DNA from: Candidatus Yanofskybacteria bacterium RIFCSPLOWO2_02_FULL_41_13
GTDB taxonomy: Bacteria > Patescibacteriota > Minisyncoccia > 2-02-FULL-40-12 > GWA2-44-9
Reading direction: 5' to 3'
Assembly: GCA_001795735.1 (NCBI GenBank)
Contig: MGKQ01000017.1
Coordinates: 3,326 to 67,325, forward strand
Length of the DNA: 64,000 bases
Position 1 is the first letter of the stretch; every line of letters begins with the position of its first letter. The notes below the pieces were generated by a model. That model saw only the letters and a program-made list of their open reading frames with translations. It was not told the DNA's origin and made no database searches. The position numbers were made by a program, and so were the translations under genes. Of the stretch, positions 18-15,580 are shown one piece after another.

Positions 18-755
18 TTAAAATTTTTCCTTATACTCCCATATTCCCTTGAATAACTCCCGCAGATTATGTGCTAAACGTTTATCATAAATCTCAATTA
101 AATAATTCGGTTGTTCTTTATATGAAACCATGACTATATAATTGCCCCTGATCCAGACTGCTGAATTAAAATCGAATTTATCGCCGAAATACATAATTTC
201 TCTTTGTGGTAACTTAGGCATTCCTTTCTCTTCTGAATTAGTAATGACCTTAACTTTGAAATCTTTGGTATGAGGTCTGGTGTAATACCATTTGATCCAC
301 TTCTGGTAGCGGGGAGCGAAAGTAGGATCCTGCATGCCCCAAAGCGTTGAGTCTGTTTCTGCCATGCTCTTGTCCCACCTATCCGCTTCGGAATATAGAT
401 AACTCTCCAAATCCAATTCTGAGACAAATTTAATTTTGGGCACGGAATATTCTGTGTTTTTTGAAATAGTATGAAGTTCTGGTATTAAGCTGTCAACGAT
501 GTTCCGCTGCCTGTTAACATAGGTTTTTAGTTGCTCAGGATCCTGGGCTATCAGCATATTTGGACGACTTCCAAGATCTTGCGATATAAACCCTTTGGAC
601 ACCAACTCACTCGCCACACTATAAACCGTGGTTCGGTTGATGCCGGTTATTTTAGCAACTTCGGGAATATCTACTTTTCCCCTCTGTAAAATAGCCAGAT
701 ACAAAGCTATCTCCTTATCGCTTAAACCCAGTTTTTGTAAGTATTCAGTTATCAT
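18..755 (-). CDS. TrmB-family HTH transcriptional regulator
   Basis: The N-terminus 'LGLSDKEIALYLAILQRGKVDIPEVAKITGINRTTVYSVASELVSKGFI' is a TrmB-type winged HTH. The protein is 245 aa. The divergent promoter region 760-880 carries three GTTGACAA motifs. Confidence 0.65.
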   Translation of the reverse strand: MITEYLQKLGLSDKEIALYLAILQRGKVDIPEVAKITGINRTTVYSVASELVSKGFISQDLGSRPNMLIAQDPEQLKTYVNRQRNIVDSLIPELHTISKNTEYSVPKIKFVSELDLESYLYSEADRWDKSMAETDSTLWGMQDPTFAPRYQKWIKWYYTRPHTKDFKVKVITNSEEKGMPKLPQREIMYFGDKFDFNSAVWIRGNYIVMVSYKEQPNYLIEIYDKRLAHNLRELFKGIWEYKEKF

Positions 756-843
756 ATAGCCATTATATCATAGTTTGTTGAAAATTGTCAACAACATTTA
801 TCCACAATATATCGGCGTTATTTCAATACAATGGTTAAAATCG

Positions 844-872
844 TTGACAATTGCAAACTAACATGATATACT
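844..872 (+). promoter_or_regulatory. sigma70-like promoter: TTGACA, 17 nt spacer, TATACT, reading into the GC-rich genes
   Basis: Read directly from sequence. A palindrome gggcactggtgccc and the SD AAGGAGG lie just downstream. Confidence 0.5.
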
Positions 873-929
873 TGAGGTAGAACGTTGACAAAGGGCACTG
901 GTGCCCAACAGTTCTTTAAGGAGGATACC

Positions 930-1127
930 ATGTTCCAGCTTGGTGATCGTCTCGAACTCATCGGTTCCAGTAAGCGTGGCGGCTACGGAGACACCATTCT
1001 TCATGACGTTGCGGACACGGTCACGGTCGCTGAGGTGGTTTCGAGCCAGTTCGGCGACTGGCAGTTCGTTCGGATCGTCGGCCACGACAGACTTTTCCCC
1101 GCCGACTGGTTCGTCAAGATCAACTGA
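930..1127 (+). CDS. small hypothetical protein, 65 aa, on the high-GC island
   Basis: ORF 885..1127. A strong SD AAGGAGG lies 5 nt upstream of the ATG at 930. GC is well above the rest of the window by eye. Confidence 0.45.
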   Translation: MFQLGDRLELIGSSKRGGYGDTILHDVADTVTVAEVVSSQFGDWQFVRIVGHDRLFPADWFVKIN

Positions 1128-1272
1128 TCAAACGGATTCGTGCTCTTGCTGCAAAAGAGGGCTCCTAATGGTGGTGGTCAACCTGGGCGAAACTAAGTTT
1201 CGCCCCTTTCCTGAGACTACGAAATTATTCGCGGTCTCAGAATTGGGAAGTTCTTTTAATGGAGGGTGTGCT

Positions 1273-1644
1273 ATGAACCAAAATATGGAGGCTTGGCGTC
1301 ATCGAATGATTCAAAATGGTGCCGCGGTCAAGAAGATTTCGAAGGCGCTTGTGATTGCCTACTGGACCGAGAGTCGCGAGTCAGATGAAAGGCCGTGCTT
1401 TGCCTCTTACTTTTCAAGAAAAGACTATATCTGCTTCAATGTTTTCTATCGAGGCGTGGAGCAGACAGAGGAGGTTTGGTCGGCTACCTACGCTCGTTTC
1501 CCCGATGGGTGGGGACTCGTCGACTCAAAGGACGTTGAGCCTGTGAAGTTTGAGATGGGCCAATTTTCCGAATCCATCGTGAAGATTAAGGTCTTGGCGC
1601 GGCATGGTCGACAATATACGTTAACCTTCCGCTTCTCAAATTGA
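1273..1644 (+). CDS. hypothetical protein, 123 aa, on the high-GC island
   Basis: This is the in-frame 3' part of track ORF 901..1644. SD GGAGGG precedes the ATG at 1273. A weak hairpin plus T7 follows at about 1709-1731. Confidence 0.45.
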   Translation: MNQNMEAWRHRMIQNGAAVKKISKALVIAYWTESRESDERPCFASYFSRKDYICFNVFYRGVEQTEEVWSATYARFPDGWGLVDSKDVEPVKFEMGQFSESIVKIKVLARHGRQYTLTFRFSN

Positions 1645-1735
1645 ATCACAACGGATTCCTGTACTTTTCCGAAAAAGAGTACTCCTCGCCCTGGAGGTCA
1701 AGGGTGCCACGCATATTGCGTAGCTTTTTTTATTT

Positions 1736-3943
1736 CTACTTCCTGGTTCTATTATGATACCTTTGATGGACTTCTCTTAATTGTTTGTCCGTTACGTGGG
1801 TGTATATCTGGGTTGTTGTCACTGAGGCATGGCCAAGCATAGACTGGACTGAGCGGATATCAGCACCATTACGGAGAAGGTCTGTGGCATACGAATTATG
1901 AGAGATAAATCCATCTGTAATGAGATTGTGAGTCGAATCAATGCCAAAATCAAAAACTTGTTGTTCGTCAGTTTTTATATTGTTAATTTTTTTAACCTTA
2001 AGCCAGATGAGATTTGAATTATCAGCCAGACTCTCTAAAAGTCGGCCTACACTTGAGAAATTCTCACCTTTTTTAAAGGTTTTTAGGCCGAGGATTATTT
2101 TGGATAGTAGATTTCTTGTCGGTGCCAACCACCTATATCTTCGTAGGTACTTTATATTATATTTTTTTTCAAGATATTGATGGAATCCGCTTTTCTCGGG
2201 TAAAGAATCCAGGATTTGAGATATCAAAGTTTGAGCAGGAATCTTATCAGACTCTATTTTGTCAGCTTTTCCTTGATAGATTATATCTTTTTTCAAAGTT
2301 GGAATAAGTTTTTTAAACTTTTTTTGCCCTTCCCTATCAAGGACATGGAGGGTAAAAATTGTATTGGGAATGATTTTACCTTGAGGCAATTTTACCATAC
2401 GATTTCTTTCTAAAACATGACTATCTATACCGAGCCGTATTAATAGCATTTGCAGATCTTTTAGCAGTTCTTTGCTGGAGGAAAAAATTTTTATGGTGCC
2501 GCTGTTACCTTCGGCATCATATATCCCGGCTAGAAACTGTCTAATTTCTGGTTCCGTCGCTTGTAATAATTGAGGGGGGACTCTCTTGTATGGTCCGGTT
2601 CCAATTGGAATGTAATTTCTTAAAAAACTGACCATCTTTTTTGAATAAAAAATTAGCTTATAGGAATTGCTATCTCTCTTTACTAAAAAGGGTTTCTTAC
2701 CAAAGTTTTTTTCAAAAATATTACTATAAAATTTTAAAAAATCCTTATTCTTATCATATATTTTTACCCCACGAAAACGTTCGTTAATCACTCCATCACC
2801 CAGAATATACCCGATAAGTCTCCAAATCTCTGGTTTAAGAAACTTGCGCCCGATCATTTTGATTTCTTTTACCCCAGCAAGATAAGTTCCTAGTTTAATA
2901 TCCTTAGCTTCTATTTCATCAATACCGCCGGTATTTATTGTAAATAGACGGTGTTTGGGTGTGCAAATAAGTTCGTGGCCATCAGCTCGAATTCTAATCA
3001 ACTTATTTTCCATATGACTAAATTTCTGTACCACTTTTTTATCCCTCAATAGACCCCTTTCAAAATCCATGCTTTTGGCGAAGGTGTTGCGGTTTTTGAA
3101 AAGAGTAAGGGCCGAGCAGATCTCCTTATCTAGAAAAATCCTTGTTTCTCTATGCAGACAATGTCTCAATGTATGAGGACTTATTTTTTTACCCATTATC
3201 CCGGCTTTTATTGAATATTTTTTAATAATTCTCTGGATGCTTCTTGGGGTCAGGCGCAAGTTGTCATCTTTTGAAAATGTCTTGCTCTTTGGGATTCTAA
3301 TGAACAGGGCCTCGTCGACATCAGAACGTTTGGATATATACTCATTTATTCTTTTTTTGGCATCCTCCGAAAGAAAAACAAGCCTTATCTTACCGCCCTT
3401 GCCCCTGATCGATAGCTCTCCCCTCTTAACGTCTATTTCCCCCCGATTAAGCGAGCACAGTTCGGATACACGCATACCGGTACTGAAAAGAGTTACGAGA
3501 ATTGCTCTGTCCCTCATCACATCAAGATTCATTCCTTCTGGGGCATCAAAAAGACGCTGAATTTCATCCAGCTCAAGAAATGTCACTTCCCTATCCTCCT
3601 GCTTGCCTAGCTCTATTCTCTCAGCCGGAACAGTTTTTATCCCGACTTTTACTAAATACTTTAAAAAATTACGCAAAGCAATTACATGATAATTCTGGGT
3701 TATTTTCTTAAGCGGCCGGCCTTTTGAATCGCGCAGACGATTTAAATTTAAACGGTACTGGCGGATTAAGTCTTCGTTTAGCTGGCCTATGGTTTTTATC
3801 TTAGCAAAAGCCAGAAACCTATCTAAATACCGCCCATAGTTCTCAAGGGTCTTTAAAGACTTGTTCTTCTCTATCTCCAGATATTCCAGATATCTTATTT
3901 TTAAATCTTTAATGTCCGACATATTTGGGGCCTGCTCCGTCAC
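1736..3943 (-). CDS. tyrosine site-specific recombinase, XerC/XerD-like, with an in-frame intein
   Basis: The N-terminal core-binding domain and the catalytic motifs are present: '[23 protein letters not shown]', 'HTLRH' and '[34 protein letters not shown]'. The two extein halves total about 313 aa, which is typical Xer size. The intein begins 'HTLRH|C' and ends 'HN|S'. Confidence 0.8.
1895..3160 (-). mobile_element. intein, about 422 aa, with a LAGLIDADG homing-endonuclease domain, inside the recombinase
   Basis: Starts with Cys (codon 3158-3160, minus strand) right after HTLRH. Block B reads 'TPKHRLF'. The LAGLIDADG motifs are '[11 protein letters not shown]' and '[10 protein letters not shown]'. 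It ends 'FISHN' followed by Ser (1892-1894). Confidence 0.75.
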
Positions 3944-4130
3944 TCAACAAGCGCCTCATCAAAGGCGACCCGAATAAGTGTATTTTAAAAAATAATTTGA
4001 GTTGCGAATACCGAACTATAACCCGAGATAGGTGACAAGGAGTCCTGCGCTTGTTGTAGTGCGGGGTCGCATAATAATTATAGCAGGTTCTGTTGTAAAA
4101 GTAAGTAGTTTATGTTACAATTCTGATGTT

Positions 4131-4394
4131 ATGTTAACTCCACAGCAAAAGGCTAAAATACTAAATAACTTCAGGGTTCATGATAAAGATACAGGCTCTC
4201 CCGAAGCCCAGATTGCTTTGTTTACTGAAGAGATCGAAAAACTGACGAAACATCTCAAAAAACATGGCAAAGATAACAGTTCCCGTGTCGGCCTTTTGAA
4301 AATGGTTGCCAAAAGAAAAAGACTGCTCGACTATCTGAAAAGGGGGGACGCCAAAAGATACAGTTCTCTAGTGAAGAAGCTTGGCCTTAAATGA
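4131..4394 (+). CDS. rpsO: 30S ribosomal protein S15
   Basis: The sequence 'MLTPQQKAKILNNFRVHDKDTGSPEAQIALFTEEIEKLTKHLKKHGKDNSSRVGLLKMV' is 88 aa. The track ORF extends upstream, but the S15 N-terminus fixes the start. Confidence 0.9.
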   Translation: MLTPQQKAKILNNFRVHDKDTGSPEAQIALFTEEIEKLTKHLKKHGKDNSSRVGLLKMVAKRKRLLDYLKRGDAKRYSSLVKKLGLK

Positions 4395-4397
4395 AGC

Positions 4398-4790
4398 ATG
4401 AAAAAGGAGTTCTATAGCTGGAATCAATTCGAGAAAGATTGCAATAAACTGGCCAAACTTGTTAAAAAAAGTAAGCAGTCGCTTAAGGCCGTCTATGGCA
4501 TACCTAGAGGAGGGCTTACTTTGGCCGTTAGGCTTTCTCATAAACTGGAGCTGCCCCTTATTGTAGATGGGTCCTTAGTTAACAGAAGCACTCTTATCGT
4601 TGATGATATTGCTGATTCTGGAAAAACCCTAATATTGTTTTGCGGCAAGAATAAATATATTACAGCCACTTTGTTTTACAGTCCGAATAGTGACTGTAAA
4701 CCGACGTATTTTTCAAGAAAAAAAGAAAAATGGGTGGTTTTCCCTTGGGAAGAAGAGAAGACAAGTAAGTATGATAAAACAAAAGTATGA
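4398..4790 (+). CDS. type I phosphoribosyltransferase, purine/xanthine PRT-like
   Basis: PRPP-binding motif 'LIVDDIADSGKT'. 130 aa. Confidence 0.6.
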   Translation: MKKEFYSWNQFEKDCNKLAKLVKKSKQSLKAVYGIPRGGLTLAVRLSHKLELPLIVDGSLVNRSTLIVDDIADSGKTLILFCGKNKYITATLFYSPNSDCKPTYFSRKKEKWVVFPWEEEKTSKYDKTKV

Positions 4791-5338
4791 TGACAAATAA
4801 AAAAATCACAATTCCTCAAAGAAAGAACCATCGAGTCGGAGTTTTCGTTGATGTCCAGAATATGTATCATTCGGCAAAGAACCTCTACGGAGCAAGGGTT
4901 AACTTTAAAGAGCTGCTCAGGATTGCCGTAGCTAACAGGGAGCTCGTGAGAGCCGTGGCCTATGTGGTTAAATCCGACACCGAAGAAGAGAAGGCCTTTT
5001 TTGATGCCCTCGAAAAAGCCGGATTTGAACTAAAAATCAAAGACCTGCAGATATTCCCGGGCGGCATGAAAAAGGGTGATTGGGATGTCGGTCTGGCAAT
5101 TGACGCCATAGGCATGTCCAAACAGTTGGATGTAGTGGTTATAGTGTCAGGAGACGGCGATTTTGAGCCATTAATCAGCTATTTAAAGCATGGCGGATTG
5201 ATAGTCGAGACTGTCGGTTTCAGGAGAAGTACAAGCTCAAAATCAATTGAAGTAGCCAATAACTTTTTTGACTTAGATGAGATTTACGATAAAGTACTAA
5301 TGGTGGGCAAAAAGCATTTTAATAAGTATAGGAAATAA
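4787..5338 (+). CDS. NYN-domain (LabA-like) protein
   Basis: 'VGVFVDVQN' and 'VVVIVSGDGDF' match a NYN/LabA nuclease-like domain. Confidence 0.6.
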   Translation: MMTNKKITIPQRKNHRVGVFVDVQNMYHSAKNLYGARVNFKELLRIAVANRELVRAVAYVVKSDTEEEKAFFDALEKAGFELKIKDLQIFPGGMKKGDWDVGLAIDAIGMSKQLDVVVIVSGDGDFEPLISYLKHGGLIVETVGFRRSTSSKSIEVANNFFDLDEIYDKVLMVGKKHFNKYRK

Positions 5339-5387
5339 TTCATAGATAATTCGGGGCAGATCGAGAAACAAGGTAGTCGGGGTTTTC

Positions 5388-5423
5388 CCCAGCCCTAGTT
5401 TTTTTTAAAAAACTAGGGCTGGG
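5388..5423 (+). promoter_or_regulatory. near-perfect 17-bp-stem hairpin (cccagccctagtttttt / aaaaaactagggctggg) between the NYN gene and pnp
   Basis: The palindrome was read directly. Its position upstream of pnp recalls the RNase III-processed pnp leader, or it may be a bidirectional terminator. Confidence 0.5.
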
Positions 5424-5467
5424 AAGAATCTCGTTACTCGTCTGGCCTGGTTATTTACCTGATCTAA

Positions 5468-7567
5468 ATGCCTATTAAAAGGTATGAGGAAGAGTTCGCG
5501 GGAAAACTGCTGAAAGTTGAAATTGGCCGGTTAGCCAACCTGGCTAACGGCTCGGTCTATGTTCAGTACGGAAATACGGCTGTTCTTGTAACGGCGGTAA
5601 TGTCTTCGTCGACAAAATCGGTAGATTATATGCCTCTTTCGGTTGACTACGAAGAAAGATATTATGCCGCCGGAAAAATTAAAGGTTCAAAATGGATGAA
5701 AAGAGAAGGTCGGCCTTCGGATGAGGCAATTCTAAGCGGACGCCTGATTGATCGGTCTTTGCGTCCTCGATTTGATCATCGAATACGCAATGATATTCAA
5801 ATCGTAGCAACGGTGCTGTCTTTTGACGGACAAAACGATCCAGATATGCCGGCATTATTTGGCGCATCTCTAGCCTTAACGATATCGGATATTCCCTTTA
5901 ACGGCCCGGTGGCAAGTACCCGAATCGGACGGATTGAAGGCAAATTAGTTTTCAATCCCACCTATGAAGAACGGCTAAAAAGCGACTTTGACATTGTCGC
6001 CGCCGGAACTTCCAACCGGATAAATATGATCGAAGCCGGAGCTTCAATAGTGGCTGAAAAAGACATTGCCGAAGCAATTGTTTCTGGCTTTAAAGAATTT
6101 CAAAAACTCATCAAATTTCAGGAGGTTATCTCCGGTGATTTAAAACCCAAAAAACGACAGCTTGCTTTAGCCGAAACGGACAAAGAACTTGCCAAGGCGG
6201 TTAAAGACTTTTCAGCTTCAAGCCTTGAAAAAGCAATTTATACCAAGAATAAGCAGGAGTATGTCGAAAATATGGCCAAAGCGAAGGAAGACCTATCGCA
6301 ACGCATAAAAGACTTGTTTAAAGATACTTCCAATATTGATGCAAAGCTCAAAGAAGCTGTCCACTTGTTCGACGAGGAGATCAATGATGTTGTTCATGAG
6401 AATATTCTGGCGTCCGAAAAAAGACCCGACTTCAGAAAATTAGATGAAGTAAGAGAACTGGCCGTAGACTGCGGCGTTCTCCCCCATTCTCATGGTTCAG
6501 GATTGTTTCAGCGCGGAACAACCCAGGTTCTTTCCACCTTAACCCTGGCTTCTCCGGGTATGGAACAGTGGGTAGAAACAATGGAAATAGAGCTTACTAA
6601 AAAAAGATTTATGCATCATTACATATTCCCACCATTTAGCGTCGGCGAAGTTGGCCGAATCGGAGGTACTGGACGGCGCGATATCGGTCACGGAGCCTTA
6701 GCTGAGAGAGCTCTGTCGCCTGTTATTCCCCCGAAAGATTCTTTTCCCTACACAATTCGTATGGTTTCCGAAACGCTGGCCTCCAATGGGTCATCTTCGA
6801 TGGCTTCGGTCTGCGGTTCATCTCTGGCTTTGATGGACGGTGGCGTACCAGTTTCTTCAGCTGTAGCCGGCATTGCCATGGGGGTTATGTTCGATAAGGA
6901 AGGTCAAAATTATAAAGTTTTAACCGACATTCAGGGTCCCGAAGACCATCATGGCGATATGGATTTCAAAGTTGCCGGAACCAAAGATGGCATCACTGCC
7001 ATGCAGATGGATGTTAAAGTTGAAGGAATCACCGGTGAAGTTCTTGAAAAAGCCCTCCTTCAAGCCCAAAAAGCCCGGCTGGAAATCCTCGGAAAAATGA
7101 ATTCCAAAATTGCCCAGCCCAGACCCGATCTTTCGCCTCTAGCCCCCCGAGTTCAGACCATCAAAATAGATCCCGAAAAAATAGGGGCGGTTATCGGCAA
7201 AGGCGGTGAAATAATCAACAAAATTATCGAAGAAACTGGCGCAGAAATTGATATTGAAGACGATGGGTCAATTTTTATTACCTGCATATCGGCCGAGGGA
7301 ATGAAGAAGGCTATTTCTATGATTGAAGAGCTCACCTATGAGGTAAGGCCGGAAGACGAGTTTGATGGCAGAGTTGTTAGCATTAGGGACTTCGGGGCTT
7401 TTATTGAGATCATGCCGGGAAAGGATGGTATGGTTCACATCTCAGAGATAAGCGATGAGAGAGTAAAAAGCGTTTCGGATGTTCTAAAGATGGGCCAAAA
7501 AGTTCACGTTCGGGTTAAGGGTGTTGATGAGATGGGCAGGATAAGTTTAACTATGAGAAAGAAGTAA
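5468..7567 (+). CDS. pnp: polynucleotide phosphorylase
   Basis: 699 aa. Two RNase PH domains and C-terminal KH plus S1 domains are present ('GEIINKIIEETGAEIDIEDDG', 'GRVVSIRDFGAFIEI'). Confidence 0.95.
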   Translation: MPIKRYEEEFAGKLLKVEIGRLANLANGSVYVQYGNTAVLVTAVMSSSTKSVDYMPLSVDYEERYYAAGKIKGSKWMKREGRPSDEAILSGRLIDRSLRPRFDHRIRNDIQIVATVLSFDGQNDPDMPALFGASLALTISDIPFNGPVASTRIGRIEGKLVFNPTYEERLKSDFDIVAAGTSNRINMIEAGASIVAEKDIAEAIVSGFKEFQKLIKFQEVISGDLKPKKRQLALAETDKELAKAVKDFSASSLEKAIYTKNKQEYVENMAKAKEDLSQRIKDLFKDTSNIDAKLKEAVHLFDEEINDVVHENILASEKRPDFRKLDEVRELAVDCGVLPHSHGSGLFQRGTTQVLSTLTLASPGMEQWVETMEIELTKKRFMHHYIFPPFSVGEVGRIGGTGRRDIGHGALAERALSPVIPPKDSFPYTIRMVSETLASNGSSSMASVCGSSLALMDGGVPVSSAVAGIAMGVMFDKEGQNYKVLTDIQGPEDHHGDMDFKVAGTKDGITAMQMDVKVEGITGEVLEKALLQAQKARLEILGKMNSKIAQPRPDLSPLAPRVQTIKIDPEKIGAVIGKGGEIINKIIEETGAEIDIEDDGSIFITCISAEGMKKAISMIEELTYEVRPEDEFDGRVVSIRDFGAFIEIMPGKDGMVHISEISDERVKSVSDVLKMGQKVHVRVKGVDEMGRISLTMRKK

Positions 7568-12939: not shown

Positions 12940-13311
12940 ATGAATGAAAAAATAATTGAGTTTGGAAAATGGGCCGAAGATTATGTCGCACAATATCTAA
13001 AGGGGCGAGGGTATACTGTTCTGGGCCAAAATTATCAGAAACCTTGGGGCGAAATAGATATAATTGTTGAGAAAGAGGGAGTCCTCATTTTTGTTGAAGT
13101 TAAGGCGAATAAAAGAGAGATGGCCGGCTTTGAACCGGAAAACAGAATAAATCCGGAGAAGTTAAGAAGATTGAACCGGGCGATACAAACATACCTAGCT
13201 TCAAAAAAATATAGTCCGGACCAGGATTGGCAAATTGATGTCATCGCCCTGACGTTTGACAAAGATAGGGGAGTGGCCAAAATCAAACACTTCAAAAATA
13301 TTGATGTTTAA
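12940..13311 (+). CDS. yraN: YraN-family (UPF0102) endonuclease-like protein
   Basis: 'GYTVLGQNYQKPWGEIDIIVEKEGVLIFVEVKA'. Confidence 0.7.
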   Translation: MNEKIIEFGKWAEDYVAQYLKGRGYTVLGQNYQKPWGEIDIIVEKEGVLIFVEVKANKREMAGFEPENRINPEKLRRLNRAIQTYLASKKYSPDQDWQIDVIALTFDKDRGVAKIKHFKNIDV

Positions 13312-13320
13312 TATAGCTAA

Positions 13321-13536
13321 TCTCCTCCCCATTTTTCGACCTGTTGAATTTCTTCGGACAAATAGTTAAATTAACCTCAATTTAGTTAACAAATTTGAGC
13401 CTCGTCGCTCGACATCTTTTTATACTAAAAAGATATCGGACTCCCCACTCAAATTTGTGGAATAACATAAATTATCGGTTAATTTAACTATTGTGTATTC
13501 CTTGAAACCAAACGGTCTGCAAAATGGGGAGGGGAT
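13321..13536. repeat. large imperfect inverted repeat, about 90 bp arms, with a central hairpin, in a 650 bp non-coding region
   Basis: Outer arms tctcctccccatttt / aaaatggggaggg. Inner perfect arms agttaaattaacc / ggttaatttaact. Central hairpin atcttttta-tac-taaaaagat. Confidence 0.6.
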
Positions 13537-13972
13537 CAGCTCAGTTTTATTTATTAAGAGTGGTCCCACCTTTTTGAGTCAGTATTGTAAGCTTCTCCTT
13601 ACTCATAATAAAGAGTGAGCTCATCTCCCGATTTATTCTCCTCGCCTGCGAATTTCCTCTCTGGGTATAGTCTCCTAGCTTACCCCTAGCAGATCATTAA
13701 TTATCTTGCTTATATCTCCCTGAAACCGTTTGAGCAACTTCATAATAAACTCGAGATATTTATGAAAGTTTTTCAGAAGACAAAGAATTGGGAGTGAGTC
13801 TTGTCTAGTATTGGTAATGCTTATTACCAATATGTCTATAAGACTGACGAGCGGGACCCAATTTTATGTCTGGAAAATGAATAAATATCGAAAAGTTTAT
13901 TGATGTTGCGAAGGTGTTGAAGAGGGATATAAGCAAGACAGTAACCCTCATTTTACCTCACTTTCCAAGCCC

Positions 13973-14001
13973 TTTACAAAAAGGTAGAAAGGTGATATAA
14001 T
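13973..14001 (+). promoter_or_regulatory. sigma70-like promoter: TTTACA, 17 nt spacer, TATAAT
   Basis: Read directly. It lies about 70 nt upstream of the GC-rich gene at 14070. Confidence 0.55.
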
Positions 14002-14069
14002 GTATATACACAGTCGAGACAGATCTTCGACAATTTTCGCCCCTTGAACGGGGCAGAGGAGAAGACAAA

Positions 14070-14864
14070 ATGAGGAGCATTCTTTCGTTTTTCGTCGTCG
14101 TCGCAACTCTGGCCACGGCCATTCCGGCTGAGGCTCAACAGAGTCCGCTCGTAACCTTGATGGCCGAAAGGATCATCAACAGTTCCAGCGGCATATACGG
14201 CGGTGGCTACTACGGCCCGCGCCTCGGTCGCAACTATGGGGGTTACTACCAGATCGAGCTGGCCATGGTTGTAGACTTTCTCAAAATGCCTGGAGTGCTG
14301 AACGCATGTACGCTGAGCACGAGCGTCTCCAACCCGGAGAAGCAAGTGGCGATGAACTGCCACATCATCATGAGAAGCTCACCGGAGAGCGTCCAGGCCC
14401 AGCTTGGGAACTTCCCGGAATCGGATCTACTCGGAACGCAGCACCCAGAAGCCGGAGTAATGCACATCCGTGCATATGATCCGACGCACAAGCCGTTCAA
14501 CAGAAACCACAAGGATTGCATACCTGTTGAATCACGCGCAATTCAGCCGGCACCGATGCCGACGGCAGAGGTGGCAACACCACTTCCGACACCACAAACC
14601 GTTCCGGTCAAGAGGATCGATCCAGAGGAGGAGATGTCTTGGAATACGGTCAACACTACCGACTTCACAGCGGTGGTCGTTGATCCGAACACGGGAAGGA
14701 AGGAACTGATCTCAGCAATGAGCTCAGCCAGCCTTTCAACTCCGACCGGTTCGAAACCGTACGTGGTAACGTTGCTTGTGCCGGGACGAGGCAACATCGA
14801 CAAGGTTCCCGGCGAGATTCGTCCCAGCAAAGACCTACAGGGCTGGGAAATCGTAGCCCGATAA
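14070..14864 (+). CDS. secreted hypothetical protein, Gly/Tyr-rich, on high-GC island 2
   Basis: Signal peptide 'MRSILSFFVVVATLATAIPAEA'. Carries 'GGGYYGPRLGRNYGGYY' and a PT-rich linker. SD GAGGAG. Composition is far richer in GC than the flanks. Confidence 0.6.
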   Translation: MRSILSFFVVVATLATAIPAEAQQSPLVTLMAERIINSSSGIYGGGYYGPRLGRNYGGYYQIELAMVVDFLKMPGVLNACTLSTSVSNPEKQVAMNCHIIMRSSPESVQAQLGNFPESDLLGTQHPEAGVMHIRAYDPTHKPFNRNHKDCIPVESRAIQPAPMPTAEVATPLPTPQTVPVKRIDPEEEMSWNTVNTTDFTAVVVDPNTGRKELISAMSSASLSTPTGSKPYVVTLLVPGRGNIDKVPGEIRPSKDLQGWEIVAR

Positions 14865-14875
14865 AGGAGATTGAC

Positions 14876-15517
14876 ATGGAACGAATACTGAGAAGGATCG
14901 GATTCTTCTCCTCGGCGGACCAAAATCCGCCGACGGCAACTTGTAATCAACCTGAGGCACCGGGTCCGAACCCGATGCCTCAGCCGACACCACGCCAGGC
15001 AAGGACGAGAAATCGTCCACCGACACGCCTAGCGTACACACGTCATGCCTCAGCAGGCGACGGCGACGACGTGATTGTCAACCCAGCATGGAATCAGTTC
15101 AAAACAGCCATGGTCTGGATTGGGGGCATCGCCGTTCTTGCCTGGATCTTCGGCGGCGGATACCTAGCTGGCCGACCATCGATGGTTAGCCAGCAAACAC
15201 AACAAGTCGTCACCAATCACGCTCAAGTGCCGACTGCGACTCAGCAGACGGCCTTAGAGCAAGGAGCAGTGATGACAACGGAAACGATCAAGGAGGCATT
15301 GACCGAAGCAGGAGAAATCCTGTCGGCCACCAACGTAGTTCGTGGTCAGGTGAAGGAGATGGCTCAGGCCGAGCTCCCACCGACGCCACCCTCGCCTCCG
15401 CCTTCGGTCGAAAAACCGAATGCGGAACCGCCGCCCGCTCCACCCACCCTCACTGATGCCCAACAGCGCAACGAGGCGTTGAAACAACGCCTTCGAGAAC
15501 GCTACGACATCAAGTAG
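14876..15517 (+). CDS. hypothetical membrane-anchored protein, Pro-rich, on high-GC island 2
   Basis: One TM segment 'MVWIGGIAVLAWIFGGGYLAG'. SD AAGGAG. Translationally coupled to the previous gene. Confidence 0.55.
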   Translation: MERILRRIGFFSSADQNPPTATCNQPEAPGPNPMPQPTPRQARTRNRPPTRLAYTRHASAGDGDDVIVNPAWNQFKTAMVWIGGIAVLAWIFGGGYLAGRPSMVSQQTQQVVTNHAQVPTATQQTALEQGAVMTTETIKEALTEAGEILSATNVVRGQVKEMAQAELPPTPPSPPPSVEKPNAEPPPAPPTLTDAQQRNEALKQRLRERYDIK

Positions 15518-15523
15518 GTTCCA

Positions 15524-15580
15524 AGCTCGTACCTTCCAACCCAGTTCATCTGGGCCATCGGAAGGACGAGCTTTTTTCTT
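15524..15580 (+). terminator. intrinsic terminator closing island 2
   Basis: Stem agctcgtaccttcc / ggaaggacgagct followed by TTTTTTCTT. Confidence 0.55.

Follow-up and report, generated by a model that had tools for sequence, protein, structure and literature searches.

A TrmB-paired array of small GC-rich genes with variable contents in Parcubacteria

The genomes of Patescibacteria (Candidate Phyla Radiation, CPR) are tiny and streamlined and, to our knowledge, little is understood of how these bacteria acquire new genes and test them. The locus described here, in Candidatus Yanofskybacteria, raises the question of how two small genes of deviant composition came to lie between a TrmB-family regulator and a tyrosine recombinase. 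The window (i.e. the whole stretch of 64 kb that was analysed) displayed 40.5% GC, against 50.3% for positions 885-1735 and 50.7% for positions 885-1700; the flanks were at 36.8% on the left (1-884) and 39.6% on the right (1736-6000). With a z of 2.7 among 851-nt windows, 2% of which were as high, the segment was indeed the outlier described by an initial annotation, although the value of about 55% given there exceeded the computed one by some 5 points. All top-ranked GC windows belonged to another island, located at about 14.0-15.6 kb. At the gene level, ORF1 and ORF2 displayed 57.1% and 48.9% GC, with third-position values (GC3) of 0.71 and 0.58 vs 0.40 (sd 0.066) in the 42 long ORFs of the window. 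Both genes are compositionally foreign to this genome, as had been proposed, and segment 885-1735 displays the deviation from its host genome by which genomic islands are recognized. The locus occurred identically in more than 20 independently assembled contigs, which rules out an assembly chimera. An apparent 55-nt insertion in one of the loci (L005) proved to be a scaffold gap of Ns.

The organization of the region is as follows (coordinates refer to the window).

18-755, minus strand: TrmB-family winged-helix regulator, 245 aa (Pfam PF01978, E 5e-14)
762-794, minus strand: promoter of the TrmB gene, TTGACA-18-TATAAT (12/12), overlapping palindrome TTGTTGAAAATTGTCAACAA (775-794)
843-891, plus strand: array promoter (promoter scan) with GTTGACAA sites at 843-850 and 884-891
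893-924, plus strand: leader, with hairpin GGGCAC-TG-GTGCCC (893-906), AGTTCTTT (910-917) and Shine-Dalgarno sequence (SD) AAGGAGG (918-924)
930-1127, plus strand: ORF1, 65 aa, orphan cassette gene (57% GC, GC3 0.71; predicted all-beta)
1128-1182, plus strand: tail copy T1 (AACGGATTC ... hairpin A ... GGTCAA), following ORF1 and recognized as a direct repeat and by alignment
1184-1257, plus strand: intercistronic linker (IGE), with hairpin H1 (1185-1205), CTTTC, hairpin H2 (1211-1240, extendable to 1203-1246) and AGTTCTTT (1249-1256)
1261-1644, plus strand: SD GGAGGG and ORF2 (1273-1644, 123 aa), O2-family protein
1645-1702, plus strand: tail copy T2, conserved structured 3' UTR element with hairpin A at 1662-1683
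1707-1733, plus strand: intrinsic terminator of the array, a stem at about 1709-1721 followed by T7, ending 2 nt short of the Xer stop codon
1736-3943, minus strand: Xer-type tyrosine recombinase with a LAGLIDADG intein (Pfam), neighbour of the array and not part of the system

The expression signals of the initial annotation were recovered. Both ORFs are preceded by strong SDs, AAGGAGG being located 5 nt from the ATG at 930 and GGAGGG (1261-1266) 6 nt from the ATG at 1273. The promoter scan confirmed a near-consensus promoter of its own at 844-872 (TTGACA-17-TATACT, 11 of 12 positions, with an extended-10 TG), and the inverted-repeat search returned the reported GC-rich hairpin GGGCGAAAC-TAA-GTTTCGCCC at 1185-1205. 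Likewise, the longer ORF at 901-1644 (247 aa) is a frame chimera, as suspected; it shares the frame of ORF2 while its first 124 codons cross ORF1 out of frame and continue through the non-coding linker. In the related locus L001, a stop interrupts the matching upstream frame, whose peptide is not conserved. For these reasons the 65- and 123-aa models were preferred to the 247-aa one, and the public gene calls of 80 and 158 aa were also found to be worse. ORF1 displayed a coding-type pattern (GC1/2/3 of 0.62/0.38/0.71). Terminators equivalent to that of the window occurred 3' of the tail in L001, L012 and L014. The array is probably transcribed as one transcript. A single promoter upstream of variable, promoterless cassettes is also encountered in integrons and CALINs (clusters of attC sites lacking integrase), a likeness in the way of working which does not by itself confer membership.

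At the protein level, the winged-helix domain of the regulator was recognized with 52 bits for PF01978 (cut-off 25.6). In profile searches of the PDB, TrmBL2 and TrmB matched residues 3-105 only; the C-terminal part of about 140 aa gave no Pfam, NCBIfam or PDB match past residue ~105, and the sugar-binding domain of archaeal TrmB was not found there. Since its promoter ends 6 nt before the ATG, the TrmB mRNA is probably leaderless. Palindrome TTGTTGAAAATTGTCAACAA, conserved in L001, L012, L014, L016, L017 and L043-L047, is the presumed operator. A third copy of GTTGACAA lies at 785-792 on the minus strand, so that three of the five copies in the 64 kb are located within 110 nt, where 1.6 would be expected in the whole window. 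TrmB may repress both promoters via the palindrome and the GTTGACAA sites.

The non-coding parts of the array displayed a clear conservation of their own. The linker (about 75 nt, two hairpins) scored 88 bits against its covariance model (E 5e-21), with a fold z-score of -3.9, and was 85-99% identical at the nucleotide level between lineages whose TrmB coding sequences were 71-85% identical. In H2, 87% of cells were paired vs 27-46% in slid controls, and four pairs had changed on both sides; the asymmetry between G.U and A.C was balanced, so that RNA and DNA are not told apart there. The sample comprised about ten lineages and seven linker copies of two sequence types, for which reason the covariation statistics are weak. 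Tail copy T1 is the same 3' element of about 55 nt as that found after the last gene in the arrays, and T2 is 78% identical to the tail of L001. Tail hairpin A was 100% paired, with three of its six pairs changed on both sides, and contains an invariant U.G pair that is possible on the sense strand only, an asymmetry in favour of that strand. Linker and tail are thus both more conserved than coding DNA and marked by compensatory changes. They may act at the RNA level, as a leaky terminator or attenuator, as processing or stabilising structures or as a translation-initiation context. The Rfam search of the window returned only three tRNAs, the best sub-threshold match in 700-1900 being at 19 bits (E 3.7). 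The linker was discarded as a dispersed repeat since the window holds a single copy. A search with pattern GAGACNNCGAAANNNTTCGNNGTCTC gave one true match in JGI metagenomes (L019); its other matches in metagenomes, genomes and IMG/VR were chance terminator-like hairpins.

The proteins encoded in the array resembled nothing recognizable in Pfam, PHROGs, PADLOC, NCBIfam or the PDB, in agreement with the initial annotation. In the first four of these collections, ORF1, ORF2 and nine other cargo proteins remained without match except for an Ocnus/PHPT1-like domain in a cassette of L001 and L046, which is the sole family assignment among cargo proteins. None of nine cargo proteins matched the HMMs of PADLOC defence systems and PHROGs; the only resemblance there was between the HTH of TrmB and the HTH domains of CasR and Csa3. 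Homologue searches with ORF1 returned only itself, and its AlphaFold model (five strands, pLDDT 67) gave no Foldseek match in the PDB with E < 0.3. ORF2, on the other hand, belongs to the small O2 family, found only in these arrays (P0002 in L001, P0056, P0057, P0059 and paralogues in L012). Its indels come in whole codons and its dN/dS is about 0.38. PDB searches by sequence and by profile gave no match for this family, and the AlphaFold model of ORF2, built on an alignment of two sequences, was unusable (pLDDT 48). Collections of phages, plasmids and viral contigs (IMG/VR) contained no relatives. It is possible, although no better than a guess that we rather doubt, that cargo proteins take fast-evolving accessory roles, e.g. 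in phage conflict or host-cell interaction.

Searches for the regulator yielded 52 TrmB homologues (at least 52 protein clusters), of which 10 related loci entered the comparison of arrays; a TrmB profile run against GTDB genomes found no further loci. All 10 related parcubacterial loci with an orthologous TrmB (67-93% identical to each other) carried a divergent array of one to three small unannotated genes. L047, whose TrmB is 41% identical, contains two TrmB paralogues, each with a divergent two-gene operon, the matched one (TrmB2) being preceded by the same palindrome. The pairing of array and TrmB is conserved; the contents are variable and combinatorial. Five loci occupying the same syntenic slot (dksA, array-TrmB, ComM) displayed the combinations O2'+O2'', A+Z, B+Z, D+C and A+C, unrelated families sharing that slot although the TrmB proteins are 88-90% identical. 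L012 harbours tandem paralogues of the O2 family. In the window, ORF1 occupies the position that two other genes, Ocnus and S, take up in the closest relatives, and its leader shares 77% identity with that of the L046 Ocnus gene up to AGTTC, from where both diverge. The initial annotation implied that relatives would not carry the same genes at the same place and with the same composition. This held for ORF1, an orphan, and failed for ORF2, whose L001 homologue is 69% identical, occupies the same position and has the same 49% GC. The "island" is not one unit: ORF2 is the terminal, orthologue-bearing member of the array and ORF1 a lineage-specific newcomer.

Array genes and TrmB displayed discordant divergence, and the suspicion that the array had a history unlike that of its neighbour was borne out. 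The TrmB of the window is nearest to that of L046 (85%), yet ORF2 is 69% identical to its counterpart in L001 and only 31% to that of L046, i.e. nearer to a distant than to a sister lineage. Synonymous divergence (pS) for the same genome pair was 0.36 (unsaturated) in ORF2 vs 0.88 (saturated) in the adjacent TrmB. More generally, ORF2, Ocnus and S had a pS of 0.36, 0.47 and 0.46, respectively, vs 0.77-0.92 for TrmB in the same pairs, dN being similar in both. Low values were confined to clades I and II, families Z and C of clade III being at 0.77-0.84. A low pS could also arise in the absence of transfer, if mRNA structure constrains synonymous sites. As to composition, array genes had a GC3 of 0.46-0.71 in every genome compared; this was typical where neighbouring genes were at 0.48-0.64 and deviant where they were at about 0.39-0.40 (the window and L044). 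Array genes thus keep a GC3 of about 0.5-0.7 in all genomes and look foreign only in low-GC hosts. Homology junctions between arrays were not sharp, some reaching the SD and others ending at GTTCTTT, which fits homologous exchange without proving it.

Our preferred explanation, which we consider reasonably probable, is that 885-1735 is the swappable payload of a TrmB-paired operon whose contents have been exchanged among Parcubacteria, probably by recombination in leader, linker and tail. The array would be a compact promoter-to-terminator operon, permanently paired with its divergent regulator. Conservation of this pair extends across Parcubacteria (Yanofskybacteria, Zambryskibacteria and other relatives), with a looser version in Doudnabacteria. 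The operon would serve as a slot in which small accessory genes are accommodated, each cistron consisting of an SD and an ORF, sometimes with a structured tail. The structured linker, in which a GC hairpin is followed by a long imperfect one and by GUUCUUU, would join the units, and tail and terminator would close the array. Lineages would reshuffle the contents, most likely by taking up DNA from other Parcubacteria and recombining with it inside the conserved stretches of leader, linker and tail; such exchange would be homologous rather than site-specific. The pool of cassettes may have a composition of its own (GC3 of about 0.5-0.7), which would make the array look foreign in this 40%-GC genome. 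ORF2 of the window is an O2-family gene that a distant lineage also carries, and ORF1 would have come with its own tail copy, displacing the Ocnus and S genes of the closest relatives. Gene transfer between Patescibacteria was reported to be common (PMC12455944). No description of this TrmB-linked array locus was found in the literature.

Other explanations were weighed against the same data. The genes may be old residents, inherited vertically, with GC content and slow synonymous change due to selection on mRNA structure or expression and with contents shaped by local duplication, divergence and loss. The L001 orthologue of ORF2, the tandem paralogues of L012, the demonstrably structured non-coding parts and the similar array GC3 in all genomes agree with such residence, but we judge it unlikely given the closeness of ORF2 to a clade-II gene rather than to that of the sister clade, the unrelated families in one syntenic slot beside TrmB proteins that are 88-90% identical, and the orphan ORF1, whose GC3 exceeds the genome average of any relative. 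Furthermore, the pS of ORF2 exceeds the linker divergence of 15%, so that synonymous sites are not frozen. That the segment is a small foreign element (island or moron) inserted by the neighbouring recombinase, as initially suggested, was contradicted and appears highly improbable. This reading is invited by the deviant composition of the segment, by the promoter and terminator that it carries and by the tyrosine recombinase gene lying 2 nt from the terminator. Yet the direct-repeat search found no flanking att repeats, only 10-nt ones at chance level, and the recombinase is of the housekeeping Xer type: with its intein spliced out, it scored 242 bits for XerD, 242 for XerC and 228 for XerA, vs 131 for the integron integrase (cut-off 265). 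It is also convergent with the array, and none of the other ten loci with an array has a recombinase gene next to it, the constant partner of the array in every lineage being TrmB. In L045, an Xer gene also lies beside the S15 block, with the array about 2.4 kb away. Array flanks consist of core genes (S15, PNPase, Xer, M23 peptidase) outside any phage or prophage setting, and relatives in mobile-element collections are lacking, as stated above. We give equally little credence to spurious ORFs in a non-coding structured-RNA locus. GC-rich DNA easily yields long open frames, structure extends over much of the non-coding part and ORF1 has no homologue, but the O2 protein family with its whole-codon indels and a dN/dS of about 0.38, the correctly spaced SDs and coding-type GC1/2/3 of both ORFs and the lack of any Rfam match speak for genes.

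A dedicated site-specific system was also considered, in which H2 or a GTTCTTT core would be used by a single Xer-type recombinase as in an integron analogue of Patescibacteria. Its mechanism would be akin to attC x attI recombination or to that of the dif modules that depend on Xer in Acinetobacter plasmids. Several features point in this direction: promoterless, SD-led cassettes expressed from one upstream promoter, combinatorial contents, mismatched imperfect hairpins that lie between cassettes and are better conserved than the genes, array homology often stopping right after GTTCTTT (where the R' core of attC would lie) and, in the window, an Xer gene abutting the array. However, an attC site folds into a single imperfect hairpin that carries an R'' core (RYYYAAC) and an R' core (GTTRRRY), whereas inspection of seven linkers by this sequence rule showed a 3' motif, GTTCTTT, that does not fit GTTRRRY, no RYYYAAC partner and two separate hairpins. 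Each junction has one linker, without further copy in 64 kb, and first and last cassettes lack it on their outer side. In addition, breakpoints do not fall at a single position, and the recombinase, of Xer type, converges on the array and is not its neighbour in other lineages. H2 itself is an 11+4+11 imperfect palindrome, present once per junction; compared by sequence, it resembled no known dif site or arms beyond being a palindrome. This system is accordingly quite unlikely in our eyes. Only slightly less so is the broader idea of an undescribed cassette platform of Patescibacteria, i.e. a TrmB-controlled slot with linker and tail as capture and exchange sites, working via a single Xer or driven by transformation with dedicated homology arms.

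The exchangeable TrmB-paired operon favoured here would matter in several respects. A regulator-linked slot is kept across genera while its contents turn over, and linker and tail are candidate new structured RNAs absent from Rfam. The locus also supplies about ten new families of small proteins for functional study. Small GC-rich "islands" in some CPR genomes would receive a simple explanation if cassettes keep their composition whatever the GC content of the host. Should exchange depend on a dedicated mechanism, a phylum with no known integron-like system would have one, and a true capture and exchange platform would mean an integron-like sampling of small accessory genes by minimal genomes. 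If it is not dedicated, the locus still provides a clean, compact model of accessory-gene flux in uncultivated bacteria.

Among known systems, integron arrays and CALINs come to mind, with promoterless small ORFs in one orientation behind a single promoter, highly variable combinatorial contents, imperfect hairpins between ORFs and cargo mostly without assigned function and of a composition unlike that of the host. In contrast to these, the array described here lacks IntI, its linker has two hairpins and no RYYYAAC/GTTRRRY cores, it contains only one to three genes, it ends in tail and terminator rather than in attC, and it is always paired with TrmB. Phage morons (promoter, gene and terminator with deviant GC) share the small genes, the near-consensus promoter and terminator of their own and a GC content off that of the surroundings; the array, unlike them, lies outside prophages, has no relatives in phage or IMG/VR collections and is kept across genera with a dedicated regulator. 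Xer dif modules (pdif modules, IMEX) are bracketed by 28-bp dif-like sites (11-6-11). Those of Acinetobacter plasmids are similar in being small, in having palindromic sites at their boundaries and in that Xer is the sole recombinase at hand. Here, however, the sequence of H2 lacks the consensus of XerC/XerD arms, paired inverted sites do not flank the modules and most lineages have no Xer gene linked to the array. REP/BIME-type palindromes and stabilising or attenuating hairpins also place GC-rich hairpins between cistrons of one operon, plausibly acting on transcript termination, processing or stability, but the linker is not dispersed, is confined to these arrays, with a single copy in 64 kb, and is far more conserved between genera than REP sequences. 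Finally, the regulator forms a bacterial (Patescibacteria) clade distinct from TrmB and TrmBL2 of Thermococcales, and its C-terminal domain has no detectable likeness to the sugar-binding domain of TrmB. It nevertheless shares with them an N-terminal winged helix followed by a long helix, a length close to that of TrmBL2 and a presumed palindromic operator overlapping the regulator's own promoter.

Region 885-1735 of the window held the small-gene array of a conserved regulator-array pair, whose TrmB-like gene (18-755, minus strand) is transcribed divergently from it. The cistrons of this array were swappable, the linker between them and the 3' tail were structured and conserved, and patterns of composition and divergence indicated exchange. 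The array locus, identical in more than 20 contigs of independent assemblies, comprised:

844-872, plus strand: array promoter (TTGACA-17-TATACT)
930-1127, plus strand: ORF1, 65 aa
1184-1257, plus strand: linker, composed of hairpin H1, a C/T-rich spacer, hairpin H2 and AGTTCTTT directly before the SD
1185-1205, plus strand: GC-rich hairpin, the H1 of the linker
1273-1644, plus strand: ORF2, 123 aa
1709-1733, plus strand: array terminator

The promoter, the SDs of both ORFs and the GC-rich hairpin of the initial annotation were all recovered and its gene models of 65 and 123 aa kept; the 247-aa ORF 901-1644 was judged too long. This also held for the public calls (records L002-L010, window 885-1127 and 1168-1644): the 80-aa ORF1 call starts at TTG 885, no more than about 6 nt from where the transcript is predicted to begin, and the 158-aa ORF2 call at ATG 1168, inside the conserved non-coding linker. 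In the related contig L001 a stop lay in frame upstream of ORF2, where the DNA and not the peptide was conserved. At the sequence level, ORF2 is coding; a 69%-identical homologue displayed a dN/dS of about 0.38 and more distant relatives (P0056, P0057, P0059) differed by indels in whole codons. No ORF1 homologue was found anywhere; this gene displayed a perfect SD, coding-type GC1/2/3 (0.62/0.38/0.71) and a predicted structure of five beta strands (moderate confidence, the model coming from a shallow alignment). An apparent 55-nt insertion between array terminator and Xer gene in L005 (5003-5013) consisted of Ns and AT-rich filler and was a scaffolding artefact, not a variant.

The comparison set was made of the public contigs of ten TrmB orthologues, representing ten lineages, 67-93% identical among themselves and 68-85% to that of the window. 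Each of them had beside it an array of small genes, unannotated and transcribed divergently.

Array gene content in relatives (families assigned by BLASTP; O2 is the family of ORF2, and S, A, C, D and Ocnus-like are other cassette families)
L001: Ocnus-like, S (65 aa), O2 (121 aa)
L046: Ocnus-like, S, O2 (140 aa)
L012 and L013: two O2 paralogues
L014, L015 and L019 (Zambryskibacteria): S and a 170-aa gene
L017 and L018: D and C
L045: A and C
L044: a single 166-aa gene

On this comparison, array content is truly hypervariable at a single syntenic site, since five loci (L012, L016, L017, L043, L045) shared the position dksA/traR, array-TrmB, ComM and differed in their array genes. TrmB and array also occurred together at other positions: the window has the pair flanked by an M23 peptidase and by Xer-S15, L014 by RNase H and RecJ, and in L001 it adjoins tRNA genes. 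Doudnabacteria contig L047 carried two TrmB paralogues spaced by about 3 kb, and a two-gene operon ran divergently from each (153-2448 and 2600-4765); the matched copy, TrmB2 (41% TrmB identity), was preceded by palindrome GTTGTTGAAATATTGTCAACA, as in the window. One of these operons included a SAM methyltransferase, and the cargo was not GC-deviant. The first cassette of L001 (1356-1805) and L046 (964-1404, minus strand) encoded a Janus/Ocnus, PHPT1-like phosphohistidine phosphatase domain (PF05005, E 4e-14); no family could be assigned to any other cargo protein. It is possible, if rather doubtful, that cargo proteins fill fast-evolving accessory roles.

The TrmB gene displayed a perfect TTGACA-18-TATAAT promoter ending 6 nt upstream of the ATG, without SD (753-767, minus strand), so its mRNA is probably leaderless. 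This promoter overlapped the conserved palindrome TTGTTGAAAATTGTCAACAA. Three of the window's five GTTGACAA octamers lay within 785-891 (1.6 expected in the entire 64 kb), one at the -35 box of each promoter and one just past the predicted array start. The regulator matched TrmB/TrmBL2 over its N-terminal 105 residues only. We infer that it would repress both promoters; TrmB-type repression together with a single polycistronic transcript appears likely.

Linker identity between lineages reached 85-99%, against only 71-85% for TrmB coding DNA of the same lineages. H2, an imperfect 13-bp hairpin extendable by CCC/GGG, had 87% of cells paired versus 27-46% with partners slid, and four pairs changed on both sides among the seven linker copies. 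In H1, inspection revealed one position changing from G-C to A-T and another present as A-T, G-C or T-A. The covariance model found one copy per junction and no further copies in the 64-kb window. The tail, ordered as AACGGATTC, hairpin A, a CTCC...GGAG hairpin and GGTCAA, lay 3' of the last array gene in the window, L001, L012, L014 and L046, with a second window copy 3' of ORF1 (1128-1182). Hairpin A was 100% paired, three of six pairs having changed on both sides; its invariant U.G pair forms on the sense strand only, and this favours structure at the RNA level. The 145 nt separating ORF1 from ORF2 folded far better than shuffles (z = -3.9), and neither linker nor tail matched Rfam. Together, extended H2 and the AAGUUCUUUU after it resemble an intrinsic terminator that would be leaky, and in the shorter junctions of another clade a GC hairpin, GTTCTT(T) and an SD recurred in this order. 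Linker and tail would, with somewhat better than even probability, act at the RNA level, through attenuation, processing, stability or translation start.

The region had a GC content of 50.3%, compared with 40.5% for the whole window, 36.8% for the left flank and 39.6% for the following 4 kb. A value of about 55% had been proposed by eye: the outlier status stood (z = 2.7 among 851-nt windows, only 2% of which reached it) and the value did not, since it fits ORF1 alone (57.1%). The anomaly was sharper at third codon positions than in overall GC, and checking GC3 placed ORF1 (0.71) and ORF2 (0.58) as outliers against 0.40 for the window's 42 long ORFs. Elsewhere in the window, only two genes at 14.0-15.6 kb had outlying GC3. 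In every genome compared, array genes had a GC3 of 0.46-0.71; they were unremarkable in relatives whose neighbouring genes displayed 0.48-0.64 and stood out in low-GC genomes, namely the window and L044 (neighbours' GC3 0.39). L046, a short contig without neighbouring genes, had a TrmB GC3 of 0.36.

The two other outliers belonged to a second, stronger GC-rich island (13990-15580; 55-59% GC; GC3 0.65 and 0.59) with a promoter (TTTACA-17-TATAAT, about 13976-14004), leader hairpins, an SD, a long-stem terminator (about 15525-15575) and two genes, neither with a Pfam match:

14070-14864: gene 1, 264 aa, N-terminal signal-like hydrophobic stretch
14876-15517: gene 2, 213 aa, one hydrophobic segment and Pro-rich tracts

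In style this was a self-contained "expression unit" like the TrmB-linked array, with no TrmB gene adjoining. The roughly 750 nt separating it from a UPF0102/YraN-like gene (12940-13311) were unusually long for a genome this compact; this stretch (13312-14069) held no plus-strand ORF of at least 60 aa and no Rfam match.

The neighbouring recombinase (1736-3943, minus strand) had suggested an integrated element. With its intein removed, it was of XerD/XerC/XerA type (228-242 bits, exceeding the XerA cut-off) and scored 131 bits against the integron-integrase model (cut-off 265). The gene was convergent with the array, and no recombinase was found beside the array in other lineages; L045 had its Xer gene near S15, as in the window, and its array about 2.4 kb away. 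The recombinase-integrated element was therefore abandoned, and the search for flanking att-like repeats around the array returned none. Exchange of cassettes by a site-specific route is improbable. The intein, a LAGLIDADG type of about 420 aa, interrupted the catalytic HxLRH|S motif itself, with ...SPHTLRH on one side and SYATDLL... on the other; the L045 orthologue (302 aa) was without it.

The window's TrmB was nearest to that of L046 (85%), and its leader was homologous to the L046 leader as far as AGTTC, diverging after; its ORF2 was 69% identical to that of L001 and only 31% to that of L046. Between the window and L001, ORF2 displayed a pS of 0.36 and a dN of 0.19, and the adjacent TrmB a saturated pS of 0.88 and a dN of 0.17. 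Ocnus (pS 0.47) and S (pS 0.46) resembled ORF2; families Z and C of another clade were saturated. By parsimony, ORF1 would have replaced the Ocnus and S genes common to L046 and L001. The patterns of composition and divergence indicate exchange of array genes; our reading is of a common cassette pool passed around among Parcubacteria. Slightly favoured as the route is uptake of DNA followed by homologous recombination in the leader, linker and tail, which are conserved. A literature search found no published description of the array locus; one report describes gene transfer among members of the phylum as frequent (PMC12455944).
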